A stretch of 26,195 nt of DNA, taken from IMG/VR virus record IMGVR_UViG_3300017707_000367, positions 1-26,195 of that record, one strand, 5' to 3'. Below the pieces are notes generated by a model. That model saw nothing but the letters and a program-made list of their open reading frames with translations, did not search any database and had not been told where the DNA came from. How positions within the stretch are numbered: the first letter of the stretch is position 1; the number at the start of each line of letters is the position of its first letter. The DNA comes from a virus (lineage: Duplodnaviria; Caudoviricetes). This document shows positions 4,067 through 16,006 of this stretch, piece after piece. The position numbers and the translations under genes were made by a program.

Positions 4067-4316
4067 AGCAACAATCAACGGATGGATTCTCACAATCGGT
4101 GGGGATAAGTATGTTTACATTGACAAGCAAGTTGATGACTATTTACTTGAGCATCACTTTGATGAACTTGAACCGTACCTGATCAAGCGAGATGTGTATT
4201 TCGGTGGATGCGTTGAGACCAATTTAGTGGGTATTGAGACGGAAAGATTCTTCTATCTTGAACCCGACAAGTTTACAGTATTATTTATGCTCGGACACAA
4301 AACAAATTTCCTATGA
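4059..4316 (+). CDS. Hypothetical protein
   Basis: 85 aa ORF overlapping both neighbours; GGAGGTGA at 4048-4055. Confidence 0.65.
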   Translation: MIEATINGWILTIGGDKYVYIDKQVDDYLLEHHFDELEPYLIKRDVYFGGCVETNLVGIETERFFYLEPDKFTVLFMLGHKTNFL

Positions 4317-4849
4317 ATAAATCAGAATCAATCAAGAACATCGCTGGTGCGTTGGTAAAATTCCAAGCATCGGTGAGCAAGGTAGCAAAGGAAGCCAACA
4401 ATCCTTTCTTCAAATCCAAGTATGCAAGTTTGGCGAACATACTGGACACAATCCAAAAGCCATTGAGCGAATGCGGTTTGGCAATCAGTCAGTTCCCTGA
4501 TGAGAACGCACTCACAACCATCATCCTTCACGCTGATTCGGGCGAGTGGATGGAATCATCCTATGTGATGCCGGTTGCAAAACAAAATGATCCACAAGCA
4601 ATGGGAAGTGCGATGACCTACGCACGGAGGTATGCACTTGGTTCAATCCTAAACTTGAACATTGATGATGATGATGATGGTGAGAAAGCAATGGGAAGGC
4701 AGATTCCAAAGAAAGATGAACTCACACCAAAGCATCCATCGTGGGCGAAAGCAGTTGAACATTTGAAGACAGGCGGAATGATGACCGATATCACAAGCAA
4801 GTTTGAGGTATCTCCGGTGAATATGAAACTTTTAATTGGCGAGAAATGA
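4313..4849 (+). CDS. erf: ERF-family single-strand annealing protein
   Basis: NPFFKSKYASL, GL..SQ, H.SGEW, PQAMGSAMTYARRYAL...DDDG signature. Confidence 0.92.
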   Translation: MNKSESIKNIAGALVKFQASVSKVAKEANNPFFKSKYASLANILDTIQKPLSECGLAISQFPDENALTTIILHADSGEWMESSYVMPVAKQNDPQAMGSAMTYARRYALGSILNLNIDDDDDGEKAMGRQIPKKDELTPKHPSWAKAVEHLKTGGMMTDITSKFEVSPVNMKLLIGEK

Positions 4850-5493
4850 ATCAGTCACATCCAGTTATTCACACTTCTTTGAACGAAGAAGATTGGCAAA
4901 GGTTGAGAAGTTCACGCTTCACCGCTTCCGAAATCCACAAACTGATGGGAACTCCGAAAAACAAATCGGAGTTCTTGTCGGAAACTGCAAAATCATTTGT
5001 CTTTGAGAAGGCAGCGGAATACTTAACCGGTGCGAAATCCGAGATCTATGGTCGTGCTTTGGATTGGGGCAAGGAACACGAGAAGGAAGCCTTCCACTAT
5101 TTCTCACAACAAACCGATGAGTTCTTCACATACTACGGTGCAGAGACATACACCTTCATCACTTATGGCGAATGGGGTGGGTATTCACCTGATGCACTCG
5201 GTCACCAGTTGGTAGAAATCAAATGTCCGTTCAATTCAGGCAACCACTTGCAAAACTTCTTCATCCAAAACAATGAGCAGTTGAAGAGCAAACGCACGGA
5301 GTATTTTTGGCAGATGCAAATGGGAATGATTGCAACCGGATTGGAAGAAGGTTTGTTTGTCAGTTATGATCCACGAATGCCCATCGGCAAGAAGCTCACA
5401 ACCACTCTCATCACTTTGGAAGAGGACATCCAAGAAATGATTGATGAAAAATTGACCTACGCTGGGGAGTTGTTTTTGTCAATCACAAAATAA
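4846..5493 (+). CDS. YqaJ-like (lambda exonuclease family) recombination nuclease
   Basis: W..LR..RFTASEI, WGKEHE..A, SPD, EIKCP, Y.WQMQ..M motifs. Confidence 0.92.
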   Translation: MNQSHPVIHTSLNEEDWQRLRSSRFTASEIHKLMGTPKNKSEFLSETAKSFVFEKAAEYLTGAKSEIYGRALDWGKEHEKEAFHYFSQQTDEFFTYYGAETYTFITYGEWGGYSPDALGHQLVEIKCPFNSGNHLQNFFIQNNEQLKSKRTEYFWQMQMGMIATGLEEGLFVSYDPRMPIGKKLTTTLITLEEDIQEMIDEKLTYAGELFLSITK

Positions 5494-8069: not shown

Positions 8070-8610
8070 AAAATCATTCTTGCTTTACTGCGACCTAATT
8101 CACACGGTTGAGCAGTTAACTGATGAACAAGCCGGTCATTTGTTTAAGCACATATTACGCTATGTAAACGATGAAGAACCACAAACGGAGAATGTAATCA
8201 CACGGATAGCATTTGAACCAATCAAACAATCACTAAAGAGAGATTTGCAGAAATACGAAGATATACGAAAGCGTAATCAAGATAACGCTCGTAAGCGGTG
8301 GGATGCGACCGCATCAAGTGGCATACCAAAGAGTACCAAAAATGCCGATAGTGTAAGTGATAGTGTAAGTGTAAGTGTAAATGATAAAAAAGTATTTAAT
8401 AAACCAAGCATTGAAGATGTTAAAACTTATATGAAAGAACTCGGAATGAATGACATTTCGGAAAGATGGATGTCTCATTATGAATCAAACGGTTGGTTGG
8501 TTGGTAAAAATAAAATGAAAGATTGGAAAGCATCGGTGAGAACTTGGAAATTAAATAATCTCCAAACCGAGGAAATTAAAACTAACAAACCTAAAATTGC
8601 AGTACTATGA
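8056..8610 (+). CDS. Putative replication initiator (DUF6291-like N-terminus)
   Basis: KKSFLLYCD...LTDEQAGHLFKHI; C-terminal F.KPSIEDV...HYESNGWLVGKNKMKDWKASVRTW; directly upstream of DnaB. Confidence 0.75.
   Translation: MATDKKSFLLYCDLIHTVEQLTDEQAGHLFKHILRYVNDEEPQTENVITRIAFEPIKQSLKRDLQKYEDIRKRNQDNARKRWDATASSGIPKSTKNADSVSDSVSVSVNDKKVFNKPSIEDVKTYMKELGMNDISERWMSHYESNGWLVGKNKMKDWKASVRTWKLNNLQTEEIKTNKPKIAVL
8347..8385 (+). repeat. Tandem hexamer/dodecamer repeat in the initiator gene
   Basis: GATAGTGTAAGT x2 then GTAAGT GTAAAT GAT (encodes DSVSDSVSVSVND). Confidence 0.85.
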
Positions 8611-9839
8611 ACACAGAAAGAATCATCCTATCCAATATGCTGTTTTACGATGACGCAAAACACTTCCTTCCAAGAATCAACAAGAACTGGTTTACAGATT
8701 CAATGTCATCCAAATTGGTTGAAGTTATGACAGAGATGTACTACAACAACGAAGCCATTGACTATGTGAGTTTATCCAAACACTTTGACAGAGTTCAAGT
8801 GCTGGAGATTATCCAACTACAACAACAAGCATCCGGCATCACAGACATCAAACCACACCTGATGAAACTTGAACACGATTACATCAAGAAGCAAGTTGTT
8901 GAAGGCGTTTTGTCTTTAGATGTAACAAAGGAATTGAATGAGCTTGTGACTGACATTCAAAATGTAGTTGAACGCACAACATTCTCAACACACAAAGAAC
9001 CATCCAGTATTGTCAAGGTGACTAACAAGGTTGTTGATCAAATCGTTTTCAATGCACAGAATGGTGGAAACTTGACTGGAAAGCAAACCGAATGGAGATT
9101 TCTTGACAAGTACATTGGTGGATACAATGAAGGGGATTTGATTGTGGTTGCTGGAAGACCGGGAATGGGAAAGACGGCAATTGCTTTGACCTTAACAAAG
9201 GAGTTTGCACAGATTGGTGGGAAGGCATTGTTCATTTCACTTGAGATGTCCAATGAGCAACTTGCAAAGAGATACATTTCCCTGATTGGAGACATTGCAA
9301 ATTGGAAAATTCGCAACGGACAATTGAGAGAGAATGAAATCCTTCAGGTGTGTGATATTGCCAACAGACAAACGATTGAGTTCTTCATTGATGATGATGT
9401 GGATTCTCGCATTGGACAAATCAAAGCCAAAGCCAAACTTCACAAATCAACGAAGGGATTGAACTTGCTGGTGATTGACTACATTCAGTTAATCAAAGGA
9501 ACAAAGACAAACCGTGAACAAGAGATTGCAGAGATATCACGAACGCTGAAACTCCTTGCAAAGGAACTTAAAATCACGGTGATGATACTTGCACAGTTAT
9601 CACGGAAGAGTGAAGAGAGAGCAGACAAGAGACCGATGTTGAGTGACCTTCGGGAATCAGGTGCAATTGAACAAGATGCCGACATCGTGATGTTTCCATT
9701 CCGACCAATGTACTATGAGCAAGAAAAACCCGAAATGGAAGAAGCGGAGTTGATAATCGCAAAGAACCGAAACGGAGAGTGCGTGACAATACCGACATAC
9801 TTTGAAGGAATGTACACAAGTTATAAAGAGAAGATATGA
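8607..9839 (+). CDS. dnaB: Replicative DNA helicase (DnaB family)
   Basis: Walker A GRPGMGKT, SLEMS, IDYIQL, AQLSR, RP.LSDLRESGAIEQDAD, IAKNRNG. Confidence 0.97.
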   Translation: MNTERIILSNMLFYDDAKHFLPRINKNWFTDSMSSKLVEVMTEMYYNNEAIDYVSLSKHFDRVQVLEIIQLQQQASGITDIKPHLMKLEHDYIKKQVVEGVLSLDVTKELNELVTDIQNVVERTTFSTHKEPSSIVKVTNKVVDQIVFNAQNGGNLTGKQTEWRFLDKYIGGYNEGDLIVVAGRPGMGKTAIALTLTKEFAQIGGKALFISLEMSNEQLAKRYISLIGDIANWKIRNGQLRENEILQVCDIANRQTIEFFIDDDVDSRIGQIKAKAKLHKSTKGLNLLVIDYIQLIKGTKTNREQEIAEISRTLKLLAKELKITVMILAQLSRKSEERADKRPMLSDLRESGAIEQDADIVMFPFRPMYYEQEKPEMEEAELIIAKNRNGECVTIPTYFEGMYTSYKEKI

Positions 9840-11098
9840 AACACGGTTCATTGTTTAGCGGAATAGGTGGGTTTGATCTCGCTGCCGAATGGATGGGATG
9901 GGAGAATGTCTTTCATTGCGAATGGATGGAGTTCCCACGAAAAGTATTGGACTATCACTTCCCTGATGCGGATAGTCACATTGATATATGTAAAACTGAT
10001 TTCAAAAAATATGCAAACAAAATTGACATTCTTACTGGAGGATTCCCCTGCCAACCATTCTCCCTTGCCGGGAAAAGAAAAGGCACGGATGATGAACGCT
10101 ACTTGTGGGGCGAAATGCTACGAGCAATTCAAGAGATTAAACCCAAATTCGTCATCGCAGAAAATGTCTTTGGTATCACGAATATTGATGGCGGATTGGT
10201 ATTCGAGCAGGTGTGCCTTGACTTGGAAACTCAAGGGTACGAAGTTCAGCCGTTTATTATTCCAGCTTCAGCCAAAAACGCACCGCACCGAAGAGACCGA
10301 TGCTGGTTTGTTGCCTACGCCAACGGCAATGATGGACGAAGCACCAATAGAGAAAGTGGATGCCAGGAATCAAAAACAAATGGAGAAGGGGAACAGTCCG
10401 TTTATTCTCGGACTTGGACAACAAGCAATGAGGGGGATGCTACCGACACCAAGAACTGCGGATGCAGAAGGGGGATGTGTCAAAAATGTGCAGATGGAAA
10501 ACGGGAATTATTTCAGAACCAACAAGGAGGGTGTGAGATGGGGTGTGAAATTGAGGGATGTTGTGGAGTCGGGGATGCTACCAACACCAACGGCAATGGA
10601 TTCAACGAACGCAACGGCAACAATGAAATCAACACAAGTGAAGGAGGGGAGTATGCACTCGGTGACATTGACAAGAGCAATGGCAATGGGGATGCTACCG
10701 ACACCAAAAGCAATGGAAGCTCCATCGGCAAGTTGGGAGAATCGCAAACCAAACAGCAAGTTCAAACCAGGAGTGACATTGACGGATTTGAAAGTGTGGG
10801 GGATGCTACCGACACCAACGGTATCGGACAAGAACGGAAGCGGAAGCAAGGAGGCGTTGGAAAAAAGGGGGAGAGGGGAACGCAACGATTTAGGCAGTTG
10901 GGCAACAATGAACACCGATGGGAAAAATTCCCAACTCAATCCCCGGTTTGTGGCGGAGATGATGGGATTCCCACCGAACTGGACGGAATTACCTTTTCAA
11001 AGTGGAGAGCAGAATCAATCAAAGGATATGGGAATGCCATAGTTCCACAAATCGCATATCAACTTTTTGAAATAATACAAGAACTAAATGCAAAATAA
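9836..11098 (+). CDS. C5 cytosine DNA methyltransferase, main (alpha-like) polypeptide
   Basis: Motif I FSGIGG, IV GFPCQPFS, VI ENV, VIII HRRDRCWFVA, X KGYGNAIVPQ; no recognisable motif IX in this frame. Confidence 0.93.
   Translation: MKHGSLFSGIGGFDLAAEWMGWENVFHCEWMEFPRKVLDYHFPDADSHIDICKTDFKKYANKIDILTGGFPCQPFSLAGKRKGTDDERYLWGEMLRAIQEIKPKFVIAENVFGITNIDGGLVFEQVCLDLETQGYEVQPFIIPASAKNAPHRRDRCWFVAYANGNDGRSTNRESGCQESKTNGEGEQSVYSRTWTTSNEGDATDTKNCGCRRGMCQKCADGKRELFQNQQGGCEMGCEIEGCCGVGDATNTNGNGFNERNGNNEINTSEGGEYALGDIDKSNGNGDATDTKSNGSSIGKLGESQTKQQVQTRSDIDGFESVGDATDTNGIGQERKRKQGGVGKKGERGTQRFRQLGNNEHRWEKFPTQSPVCGGDDGIPTELDGITFSKWRAESIKGYGNAIVPQIAYQLFEIIQELNAK
9867..11042 (+). CDS. Overlapping alternate-frame methyltransferase polypeptide (beta-like) with five LPTP modules and motif IX
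   Basis: 391 stop-free codons in the +1 frame; ends LNPRFVAEMMGFPPNWT (motif IX-like); true start unknown. Confidence 0.75.
   Translation: MGLISLPNGWDGRMSFIANGWSSHEKYWTITSLMRIVTLIYVKLISKNMQTKLTFLLEDSPANHSPLPGKEKARMMNATCGAKCYEQFKRLNPNSSSQKMSLVSRILMADWYSSRCALTWKLKGTKFSRLLFQLQPKTHRTEETDAGLLPTPTAMMDEAPIEKVDARNQKQMEKGNSPFILGLGQQAMRGMLPTPRTADAEGGCVKNVQMENGNYFRTNKEGVRWGVKLRDVVESGMLPTPTAMDSTNATATMKSTQVKEGSMHSVTLTRAMAMGMLPTPKAMEAPSASWENRKPNSKFKPGVTLTDLKVWGMLPTPTVSDKNGSGSKEALEKRGRGERNDLGSWATMNTDGKNSQLNPRFVAEMMGFPPNWTELPFQSGEQNQSKDMGMP
10433..10818 (+). repeat. Four dispersed 20-bp direct repeats GGGGATGCTACCRACACCAA
   Basis: Copies at 10433, 10571, 10688 and 10799 (spacings 138/117/111); a diverged fifth copy near 10305. 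Confidence 0.92.
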
Positions 11099-11105
11099 CA
11101 TTCTA

Positions 11106-11579
11106 ATGAACCCGTATCAAGAAACCCACAACCTGAAGCAAGAAATTCGCAGATTGCGTTTACAGATTACAGAGATAACCGTCAAGCACGACAAAGAAAT
11201 TAAAAGGCTTAAACAAGAAATCATCAACCCCAAGTGCGATTTGAATACCATTGATGCTGACTGGACAGATGCAATGAGGGTTTGTTGTCAAGCCTACGAT
11301 GTGACACCTGATCTTGTTATTTCATCATTGAGAAAACAATCGGTGGTGTATGCCCGTCATATGTTTTCCTTCATTTGCCGTAAGCATTTGAAGATGACAT
11401 TCTCATCAATTGGCTATATATTAGGGAGAGACCATTCCAGCGTGATGAATGCCATCAATGTGTTTGACAATTTAATTACACACGACAAAACCATACGACA
11501 AACCTATGAAACATCCGTTCAGTTATTGGGTGATTACTTGCACCAAAGGACTCTCGTCATCGATACACATTTTGTATGA
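11106..11579 (+). CDS. Protein with a DnaA C-terminal (domain IV)-like HTH
   Basis: SSLRKQSVVYARHMFSFICRKHLKMTFSSIGYILGRDHSSVMNA matches the Bac_DnaA_C pattern; N-terminal coiled coil; start 11088 or 11106. Confidence 0.85.
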   Translation: MNPYQETHNLKQEIRRLRLQITEITVKHDKEIKRLKQEIINPKCDLNTIDADWTDAMRVCCQAYDVTPDLVISSLRKQSVVYARHMFSFICRKHLKMTFSSIGYILGRDHSSVMNAINVFDNLITHDKTIRQTYETSVQLLGDYLHQRTLVIDTHFV

Positions 11580-14107: not shown

Positions 14108-14283
14108 CATCACAAGACAAAGCAGAAGAAATCAAAGAATCGTTCAACAACTCGTTGACGGTGAAGGATTGCTCATTGGTTGCAGTTGACCAAATCATTG
14201 AGGCGTTGTCTCATAAAACTTGGGAGAATCGCAATGAGTTGATGTTTTATTTGGAGGTCAAAGAAATACTTCAACAACTATGA
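14104..14283 (+). CDS. Hypothetical protein, paralog of 12397..12606
   Basis: MTSQDKAEEI...CSLVAVDQII...FYLEVKEILQQL. Confidence 0.7.
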   Translation: MTSQDKAEEIKESFNNSLTVKDCSLVAVDQIIEALSHKTWENRNELMFYLEVKEILQQL

Positions 14284-15023
14284 GAGTTATCCAGTCGGGA
14301 CATCTTGGTGATTTGATCTATTCACTCACGGCAACCAAGCGAGTTGCAGAGTTACACGGTGGAGTAGATTTCCACATCGGATTCCGTGAGCAGAATACTG
14401 TTTCCGGTCATCCAAGCGGAGGATACTGTATGAACTTAAACTCATACGAATATATCAAGCCATTACTTGAGCATCAATCGTACATAAGAAAGGTTGAGAT
14501 GCACTCGCATATTGATATGGGGTATGACTTTGATAAGTTCAGGCATCACGGGTTGAATCTCGCTGCTGGTGATTTGAGACGCAATCACTTTCTTATCTAT
14601 CCCGAATTGATTACAGATCTTCACGAACCTTGCATTGAAGCCAGTGAACCGATTCCATACTTTGCGGACAAGATTCTCTTGAACTTCTCTGCTCGTTATC
14701 GCAATCACGATATCAACTATTTCCCATTGAAGGAACACAAGTGCGTTTTCTTTGGATACGAATCCGAGTACATCGCATTTACAGAGAGATGGCAGTTGGA
14801 TTGTGAACTATTGAAATGTCAGGATGCTTTGATGTTGGCAACCATTGTGGGCAGTTGCAAGGCGTTCATTGGCAATCAGTCAAGCACCTACGCAATCGCA
14901 GAGCAAATGAAAGTAAAACGATTGCTTGAGGTATGCGTTCACTCACCAAATGTTATACCTGTCAACAATGGCTTTGACTATCTCACGAATCAAGGCTTTA
15001 ATTACTTACTTAATACCCTATGA
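14280..15023 (+). CDS. GT9-like (heptosyltransferase-like) glycosyltransferase
   Basis: N-terminal GHLGDLI and C-terminal AFIGNQSSTYAIAE resemble GT9 GD and FIG.DSG..H.A motifs. Confidence 0.65.
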   Translation: MRVIQSGHLGDLIYSLTATKRVAELHGGVDFHIGFREQNTVSGHPSGGYCMNLNSYEYIKPLLEHQSYIRKVEMHSHIDMGYDFDKFRHHGLNLAAGDLRRNHFLIYPELITDLHEPCIEASEPIPYFADKILLNFSARYRNHDINYFPLKEHKCVFFGYESEYIAFTERWQLDCELLKCQDALMLATIVGSCKAFIGNQSSTYAIAEQMKVKRLLEVCVHSPNVIPVNNGFDYLTNQGFNYLLNTL

Positions 15024-16006
15024 AACTTTTAATACTAACAGACGGAATCAATGGTGTGGTTTACCATCGCATTTACGCACCACATTTGAGAATGCAGATA
15101 AACGGAGAAGCGGTGGTTGATGTCTGCCAATCACAAGCCGAATGGATGACGGTTGACCTTGCACCATACGATGTGATTGTTTTCTCACGATGGCTTGGAA
15201 AGAACCAGTACGATGTCTTGAAACGCATCACGGATGCCGGGAAGCCTTATGTCATAGATGTGGATGACTATTGGGTACTCCCAAAATACAACCCTGCATA
15301 CTGGGCATATCGCAAAGGAATCAAGAACGCCATCAAGGATGCCATCAACTATGCGGATGCGGTATTCTGCACAACTCAAAAACTCGCCAATGAAGTGAGG
15401 ACAATTAACGAGAATGTCTACATTGTGCCAAACTGCCTGGATACATCTCACAACCAATGGAAGCAACCAAAGGAGAAGAATGAGAGAGTGAAAATAGGAT
15501 GGGTTGGTGGAATCACACACGAGGAGGATTTGAAGCTCATTGCGGATGACATCAATTCAATGGATGTGGATTTATACATTTGCGGATACACTCCAAGTGA
15601 TCATTGGAACAACATTGTCAAACTGATTCCAAAAGCCAACATCGTTCAAGGCACTTCGGTATTTGAATACGGTGAGGTCTACAAGCATTTTGACTTTGTA
15701 CTTGCACCCCTTCAGGACAACCACTTCAACAACTGCAAATCGGAGTTGAAGATTGTGGAAGCCGCTGCCTATTCTTTGCCCATTATCTGTTCGGCAGTTT
15801 ACCCATACTTATACCATACCGGAAATGATGGTGTAATCTTCGCAACTCAAAATAACTGGAAGGCATCCATTGAGAAATTGATTGATGCTGGTCATTCGGT
15901 GAGACAATCAATGGGCGAATCAAATCGCATCTATTGTGAGACCTACCACAACCTTGAACTGCACAACCTAACACGATTGAGTGTTTACCAAAGTTTATGC
16001 AAATAA
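15020..16006 (+). CDS. GT-B fold glycosyltransferase (GT4-like)
   Basis: IDVDDYW, AD.V.CTT..LA, VPN, IGWVGG.TH.EDL, LAPL.DN.FN.CKSELKIVEA...PIICS...Y. Confidence 0.85.
   Translation: MKLLILTDGINGVVYHRIYAPHLRMQINGEAVVDVCQSQAEWMTVDLAPYDVIVFSRWLGKNQYDVLKRITDAGKPYVIDVDDYWVLPKYNPAYWAYRKGIKNAIKDAINYADAVFCTTQKLANEVRTINENVYIVPNCLDTSHNQWKQPKEKNERVKIGWVGGITHEEDLKLIADDINSMDVDLYICGYTPSDHWNNIVKLIPKANIVQGTSVFEYGEVYKHFDFVLAPLQDNHFNNCKSELKIVEAAAYSLPIICSAVYPYLYHTGNDGVIFATQNNWKASIEKLIDAGHSVRQSMGESNRIYCETYHNLELHNLTRLSVYQSLCK

Follow-up and report, generated by a model that had tools for sequence, protein, structure and literature searches.

The stretch analysed here (the window, 26,195 nucleotides) is a phage contig that encodes a terminase, a helicase, and ERF and YqaJ proteins, as identified by a protein-family scan of its genes, and that was matched in freshwater sequencing runs. 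It carries a C5 methyltransferase gene with a second chain nested within it in another reading frame, and no restriction partner was found among the scanned genes of the window. The two chains, referred to as alpha and beta, and their surroundings are laid out as follows.

4313..5493, plus strand: ERF annealing protein and YqaJ exonuclease, given for context as the pair that the initial annotation suggested might act at the repeats, about 5 kb upstream of the module array
8607..9839, plus strand: DnaB helicase of the replication module, directly upstream of alpha and overlapping its start
9836..11098, plus strand: chain alpha, 420 amino acids, frame 0, C5 methyltransferase motifs I to VIII and X
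9854 (motif I), 10046 (motif IV, PCQ), 10283 (motif VIII), and 11030 (motif X, GN), plus strand: motif positions in alpha, where motif VI is also present
9867..11042, plus strand: open frame of chain beta, +1 frame, nested in alpha, with its likely start at ATG 10011 (343 amino acids)
10011..10310, plus strand: N-terminal part of beta, conserved, overlapping alpha motifs IV to VIII and modelled as two helices and a beta-hairpin
10014..10031, plus strand: QTKLTF, a hexapeptide resembling sliding-clamp-binding motifs, at the N terminus of beta (MQTKLTF from 10011)
10322..10915, plus strand: passenger stretch of alpha beneath the array, 198 amino acids, 12% hydrophobic, no stops
10935..10973, plus strand: motif-IX-like stretch of beta, LNPRFVAEMMGFP, located 92 nucleotides before motif X in 53 of 53 loci

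The alpha chain matched PF00145 over residues 1 to 168 (E 1e-43), with further matches to TIGR00675 and phrog_363, and C5 motifs I, IV (PC), VI (ENV), VIII, and X were all present. Inspection of the alpha motifs found motif IX to be missing from frame 0. A variable region and motif IX do lie between motifs VIII and X, but in the +1 frame, where LNPRFVAEMMGFP, which we take to be motif IX from the usual anatomy of C5 methyltransferases, has a pN/pS of 0.16 and a counterpart that precedes motif X in single-chain relatives. The alpha residues beneath the array are likely disordered; their counterpart in the model of one relative has a pLDDT below 50. The initial annotation had described an array of modules in the +1 frame and overlooked that this frame is a whole second chain, which begins about 300 nucleotides upstream of the array and includes motif IX.

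Beta matched phrog_1008 (E 6e-34), and PHROG 1008 already includes beta under the label DNA methyltransferase. This is a label only, as the literature searched held no account of the modules, their shuffling, or their function. Both frames are annotated in phage Tadhana, and Paenibacillus phages have doubly annotated genes. Profile scans assigned beta to no Pfam or NCBIfam family, comparison with PDB sequences gave nothing informative, and the ESM Atlas returned unnamed viral clusters only. Against solved folds, the beta model reached a best Z of 3.7, an absence of match that is no evidence of a new fold, and no DNA-binding fold was found in the model or in this comparison; among viral models, Foldseek gave two matches at E ≤0.001, both labelled methyltransferase and both with low TM-scores. 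A beta profile search reached 19,583 clusters (at 50% identity) at E ≤0.001 and 7,263 at E ≤1e-10. RNA run X19 yielded only short, dissimilar pieces, which say nothing about expression.

Between its N-terminal part and the motif-IX-like stretch, beta consists of five modules joined at four copies of a 20-bp repeat.

10311..10439, plus strand: module 1, 43 amino acids, type 3; found 15 times in the set, 14 of them as the first module
10440..10577, plus strand: module 2, 46 amino acids, type 6; 9 copies
10578..10694, plus strand: module 3, 39 amino acids, type 0; 68 copies
10695..10805, plus strand: module 4, 37 amino acids, type 27; 4 copies
10806..10934, plus strand: module 5, 43 amino acids, type 5; 10 copies, last in all
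10433..10452, plus strand: junction repeat copy 1, coding for GMLPTP in beta
10571..10590, plus strand: junction repeat copy 2
10688..10707, plus strand: junction repeat copy 3
10799..10818, plus strand: junction repeat copy 4

All five LPTP motifs quoted in the initial annotation are present in the +1 frame, where LPTP occurs five times; over the whole window, the remaining five frames together contain it once. The repeats start at 10433, 10571, 10688, and 10799 with spacings of 138, 117, and 111 bp, and both frames stay open across the array, as had been reported. The modules (37 to 46 amino acids) are indeed unrelated to each other, with core local scores of 12 to 27; the similar terminal helix claimed for each of them was predicted in modules 1, 2, 3, and 5 and not in module 4, in a beta model of low confidence (pTM 0.30). 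Two contigs from run X1 (possibly the source sample) match 10239-10670 and 10642-10966 with zero differences and between them span every junction, and one contig from run X2, which belongs to another study, covers 10642-10957 with zero differences and spans two. An assembly artefact in the array of the window was ruled out by these contigs, which bridge all junctions.

A set of 237 records, made up of the window and 236 viral loci, was reduced by the removal of 101 duplicates and the loss of 12 further records (3 cut at contig ends, 3 intact but missed by the patterns used, 5 with a stop in motif IV, and 1 with a stop in beta). The nested layout, with motifs I to VIII and X in alpha and motif IX in beta, was found in the 124 distinct, intact viral loci that were left. 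These hold 390 modules with a median length of 40 amino acids, 1 to 6 per array, which clustering divided into 101 types, a few of them unsplit doubles; the 124 arrays display 113 arrangements. Variation in module number and identity, which the initial annotation had proposed to look for among homologous loci, is evident from these counts, although most of the loci are metagenome contigs whose long-range order is possibly chimeric, and they are related, so that the counts are not independent.

Where backbones were at least 97% identical, 4 of 58 pairs had the same array, and both orders were seen for 10 of 302 co-occurring type pairs. All five module types of the window recur elsewhere with other neighbours; type 0 (module 3) has neighbours of 30 kinds on the left and 33 on the right, and it is usually internal, yet it is also found as a sole module. 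Loci L228 and L237 have in common the first module and 1,105 nucleotides after motif IX and differ from the next junction onward. Module variants in metagenomic data, which the original proposal also called for, were found as contigs in runs X1 and X2 that join module 4 to module 3, opposite to the order in the window. Near-identical modules on backbones below 85% identity were limited to 2 pairs. Among the 44 types with at least three copies, 17 were always last, 23 were never last, and 4 were both, which indicates that modules are not freely interchangeable. The description of the array as programmable was overstated, as no sign of directed switching was seen. Several intact loci carry a single module. 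In three loci (L051, L066, and L075; types 20 and 51), one module type reaches about 140 amino acids through an inserted segment that is helix-turn-helix-like, indicating that large inserts are tolerated. Some assemblies contain two or three copies of the locus (L256 and L257; L297 and L298; L290, L312, and L318), a possible pool for exchange between prophages.

Junction and tract analyses were used to place the breakpoints. At 255 junctions, codons at −3 and further upstream of the LPTP leucine track the upstream module and codons at +4 and beyond track the downstream module, such that ancestry switches at codons −2 to +3, within GMLPTP. On the 5′ side, 137 of 187 identity tracts end within −12 to +23 nucleotides of a module start, an interval comprising 27% of positions, and part of this count is expected in any case, since arrays with different first modules have to diverge at the first junction; on the 3′ side, the end coincides with a junction for only 10 of 18 tracts. 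These analyses bear out the suggestion that modules are gained, lost, and swapped, and reordered as well, with a switch of ancestry inside the repeat. In two phages, L247 (Tweety) and L251 (Shauna1), apparent within-module deletions fuse a module to the segment preceding motif IX; some rearrangements therefore fall outside the LPTP junction.

The near-identity reported for the 20-bp repeat holds in the window, where copies are identical pairwise at 18 to 19 of 20 nucleotides, and does not extend to the family, in which copies match at a mean of 14.3 of 20 nucleotides versus 13.5 expected from the peptide alone (above that expectation in 63 of 89 arrays). The window is an outlier in this respect, with a match of 18.7 versus 15.2 expected (0 of 5,000 simulations). 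The repeat mainly reflects the peptide that it encodes. The idea of a dedicated site for site-specific recombination was rejected, as junction copies match no better within arrays (14.25 of 20) than between them (14.31 of 20) and barely exceed the peptide-only expectation. The pattern would fit short-homology recombination combined with ordinary recombination in shared modules. Chimeric modules look rare; 16 type pairs have a common inner sequence, most of them double modules that the parser left unsplit.

The constraint on each frame was assessed with a stop test in which synonymous codons were resampled in one frame and stops were counted in the others. This was applied to 53 non-identical loci drawn from a first scan (80 loci kept of 593 confirmed) that used the modules of the window as query, which favours type 0. 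When alpha was kept over motifs IV to VIII, the +1 frame had 0 stops versus 139 expected, and the third frame had 309 versus 304; when beta was kept over the array, alpha had 0 stops versus 480 expected. Across 414 same-type module pairs, pN/pS was 0.11 in beta versus 4.1 in alpha. Although the loci are related and neither stops nor pN/pS pairs count as independent events, these values identify beta as the selected product in the array and alpha as a passenger that is read through to motif X. Further upstream, in 57 of 57 loci no stop interrupts the +1 frame from a point at least 56 nucleotides ahead of the catalytic PC. Across motifs VII and VIII, the alpha synonymous rate falls from about 0.5 to 0.06-0.13. 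Beta is thus a whole chain and not an array alone. The same two-frame layout was found in 63 of 67 loci of a more distant set, comprising 80 loci, mostly from Bacteroidota genomes (prophages), of which 11 without a motif and 2 duplicates were left out. Three proteins in which the start of alpha is fused to beta (P0039, P0044, and P0098) were rejected as natural fusions, since the resulting chain has none of motifs VI to VIII and X, and were taken to be frameshifted sequences or gene calls.

That the modules occupy the position of the target-recognition domain (TRD), as originally proposed, is supported by single-chain relatives and by an HhaI-like model. Among the matches listed for the WillSterrel protein, 90 of 120 relatives carry their modules in a single chain, between motifs VIII and IX. 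The model of protein P0143 (pLDDT 84, pTM 0.83) aligns with M.HhaI over its whole length (Z 23.4, rmsd 3.3, 246 residues aligned) and has its module within the variable region, the part responsible for specific contacts in solved C5 methylases (PMC3404938). Thirteen actinophage loci from cultured phages, chosen from the spread of 212 matched records, were also compared. In 11 of them, 1 to 5 modules are found with motifs IX and X in the catalytic frame and 1 or 2 more on a short +1 chain; Rhodococcus phage ReT1v-1 has four modules in the +1 frame, but motifs IX and X in alpha, and Inventum has modules, IX, and X all in the +1 frame. Module number and order vary among these 13 loci, and their layouts indicate that the split point between frames has slid and that either chain can carry modules. 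In all 124 loci, the array is situated between motifs VIII and IX and contains one module or more, and the alpha stretch beneath the array is not under selection, which leaves no other TRD candidate. The threonine of LPTP is invariant in 253 of 253 junctions, recalling the conserved threonine of TRDs.

Homology to known TRDs was not detected. The modules had no match in Pfam or among PDB sequences, and a profile of 66 module types scored the TRDs of SPbeta MtbP and the two phi3T enzymes at −3 bits, below shuffled sequences (best, 2.3), versus 7 to 19 bits for actinophage modules. The parallel drawn in the initial annotation to multispecific methyltransferases of Bacillus phages therefore stands for tandem units between motifs VIII and IX and fails for TRD homology. 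A search of the literature, consisting mostly of freely available papers as listed, found no description of LPTP module arrays; supplementary tables of the REBASE type may hold specificities of members. Short palindromes are strongly depleted in the window (seen/expected: GGCC, 0/31; GCGC, 0/26; ACGT, 1/60; CATG, 7/120), as would be expected under restriction pressure, and no tie between this avoidance and any module was found. Over positions 1-26195, CGCG and CTAG are also absent and TCGA occurs 5 times, whereas CCGG, GTAC, TGCA, and CCSGG are largely kept; these kept palindromes are candidates for methylated sites.

The N-terminal segment of beta carries a further conserved feature. Shortly before motif IV, a QxxLF or QxxLxF pattern was found in 104 of 108 distinct stretches versus 3.2 expected, and in 52 of 78 diverse representatives versus 0 in a control stretch (60 of 138 were set aside for a short N terminus), although the pattern was picked after these data had been viewed. 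In a held-out prophage set, it was present in 32 of 63 loci versus 0.2 expected. Its position differs by lineage, as do its forms (QISLF, QTKLTF, and, in 5 of the 13 actinophage loci, QMDLF or QVDLF), which argues against a mere shadow of alpha. The sliding-clamp consensus is given as Q-aliphatic-x-[LM]-[FL] or Q-aliphatic-x-[LM]-x-[FL] in PMC11139829. QISLF, QLTLF, and QMDLF of relatives fit or nearly fit this consensus, whereas QTKLTF of the window deviates with a threonine at position 2. From this resemblance we infer that the motif may bind the sliding clamp; the same type of literature search (mostly freely available papers, by listing) found no clamp motifs described in such methylases.

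Overall, we favour, with a probability of roughly 0.6, a two-chain methylase in which a catalytic C5 chain would act together with a nested chain of exchangeable modules, probably as a multispecific, anti-restriction enzyme. Beta would be made by internal initiation near 10011 and would bind alpha to form one enzyme. The modules would serve in turn as the DNA-reading head, one docking at a time through the invariant LPTP threonine beside motif IX and presenting its variable loop to the major groove. Several sequences would thereby be methylated and the phage shielded from host restriction. New module neighbours would arise by short-homology recombination at the GMLPTP junction, and these would spread by ordinary recombination within modules and flanks that loci have in common. 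Through its N-terminal motif, beta would keep the enzyme attached to the sliding clamp of the host, behind the phage fork.

Other explanations were weighed against this one. The modules could act jointly, or bind DNA loosely, to give one relaxed or near-nonspecific methylation pattern. Modules of median length 40 amino acids that begin at the PT motif, where Bacillus TRDs have preceding sequence, and that show no homology to known TRDs agree with such an activity, but about 100 selected types exchanged as intact units fit discrete specificities better, and a single module is enough in several intact loci; we regard this as unlikely. It is also improbable, in our estimate, that only the last module, beside motif IX, reads DNA while those upstream form a silent store activated by deletion or recombination. 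Such a role accords with the 17 types that are always last and the 23 never last, and packing of internal modules was not predicted in the beta model. However, the 23 never-last types could not act as a store, same-type modules, mostly internal, are under purifying selection, and some actinophage modules lie on a beta chain that has no motif IX. More doubtful still is that the modules bind host proteins, with the methylase displaying, for example, inhibitors or decoys of restriction enzymes: diversity and shuffling are also typical of protein-targeted counter-defence, and a DNA-binding fold was not found, but this reading does not account for the placement of all 124 arrays between motifs VIII and IX with at least one module each, over an alpha stretch that is unselected and offers no alternative TRD.

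A single polypeptide made by two ribosomal frameshifts, into the +1 frame after motif VIII and back after motif IX, would restore the usual order of motifs I to VIII, TRD, IX, and X. We consider it very improbable, as it leaves unexplained both the stop-free alpha frame under the array and the stop-free, selected beta frame upstream of motif IV, and the point of frame change differs between lineages. Misassembly at repeats is a scarcely credible source of the array and its variation, even with most loci coming from metagenome contigs, given the zero-difference contigs across all junctions and the like variation in cultured phages.

The two-chain methylase has partial counterparts among known systems. 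M.EcoHK31I (YGGCCR) is a two-chain C5 methyltransferase with motifs I to VIII and X in alpha and IX in beta, as described in PMC2836561 and PMC3404938. Its layout resembles that of the window in that beta lies wholly inside alpha in another frame and the motif split is the same; in these sources, however, its TRD is predicted to lie in alpha, and the enzyme recognises a single sequence. The window differs in having the selected variable region in beta, with 1 to 6 exchangeable modules in the family, and in being a phage orphan gene; a TRD in alpha is at odds with the pN/pS of 4.1 for alpha under the array versus 0.11 for beta. Two plasmid methylases considered as M.EcoHK31I relatives proved to be ordinary single-frame genes. 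M.AquI (CYCGRG) likewise has two chains, the small one holding the distal variable region and motifs IX and X (PMC3404938). This small-chain content recurs in the relative from phage Inventum, whereas the window keeps motif X in alpha and its chains are nested.

The multispecific C5 methyltransferases of temperate Bacillus phages (SPbeta MtbP and phi3T) act against restriction, as stated in PMC12707154. Their recognition units also stand in tandem between motifs VIII and IX, a likeness of position only. In contrast to the window family, they are single chains with 18 to 61 stops in the other frames, their TRDs have no detectable likeness to LPTP modules and no such repeat-bounded junction, and they carry extra sequence before the PT motif, at which the modules of the window family start. 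Type I and IIG TRDs read parts of one bipartite site. In the DOMO process, the repeat-bounded TRDs of Type I and IIG specificity subunits shift position and number by recombination at repeats, according to PMC3077401. Units of the window family similarly change position and number at flanking repeats; the DOMO genes, however, are chromosomal restriction-modification specificity genes, whereas the gene here is a C5 methylase of a phage, and its short modules lie where two frames are coding. The layout matches that of M.EcoHK31I apart from the place of the selected variable region, the shuffling is DOMO-like, and the locus would use the principle of the Bacillus multispecific enzymes without membership in that group.

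More tentatively, and with less confidence than in the reading for the window, these data may describe a very large phage family of mix-and-match methylases, in which heads of about 40 residues, drawn from a pool of at least 100 and reading one sequence each, sit in either chain, are exchanged at a six-codon junction, and are clamp-tethered at the fork. If each module sets a sequence, the family would constitute a natural library of minimal, portable C5 reading units, far larger than the small number of Bacillus TRDs, and a widespread phage countermeasure to restriction, one that gene callers conceal (7,263 beta clusters at E ≤1e-10). The question of how TRD sequence relates to specificity could be tested by module swaps, including in cultured mycobacteriophages. 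The locus also offers a clear example of dual coding: for about 600 nucleotides one frame is kept open solely so that a distal motif can be reached, and the point of division between the frames moved during evolution. Clamp tethering, if true, would couple protection of phage DNA to its replication.

Several further observations were made. Eleven viral contigs carry an identical in-frame insertion of 6 nucleotides, which includes a stop codon and separates the Pro from the Cys of the catalytic motif; the records named for this motif IV stop sub-lineage are L336-L346, L320, L053, L058, L142, and L146. The insertion-bearing contigs differ at synonymous sites and in module sets, and both halves of alpha and all of beta are open and conserved; the insertion is possibly a recoding signal or a spreading inactive allele. 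In L065, a stop codon lies within the last beta module while alpha is open, either an inactive allele or a sequence error. Elsewhere in the window, positions 14280-16006, just before the terminase, hold a glycosyltransferase gene and an upstream gene of 247 amino acids with no family match, for which a role in DNA or surface modification is possible. A DnaA C-terminal helix-turn-helix is encoded at 11088-11579 by a gene that overlaps the methylase end, and such a gene also follows the methylase in L148.
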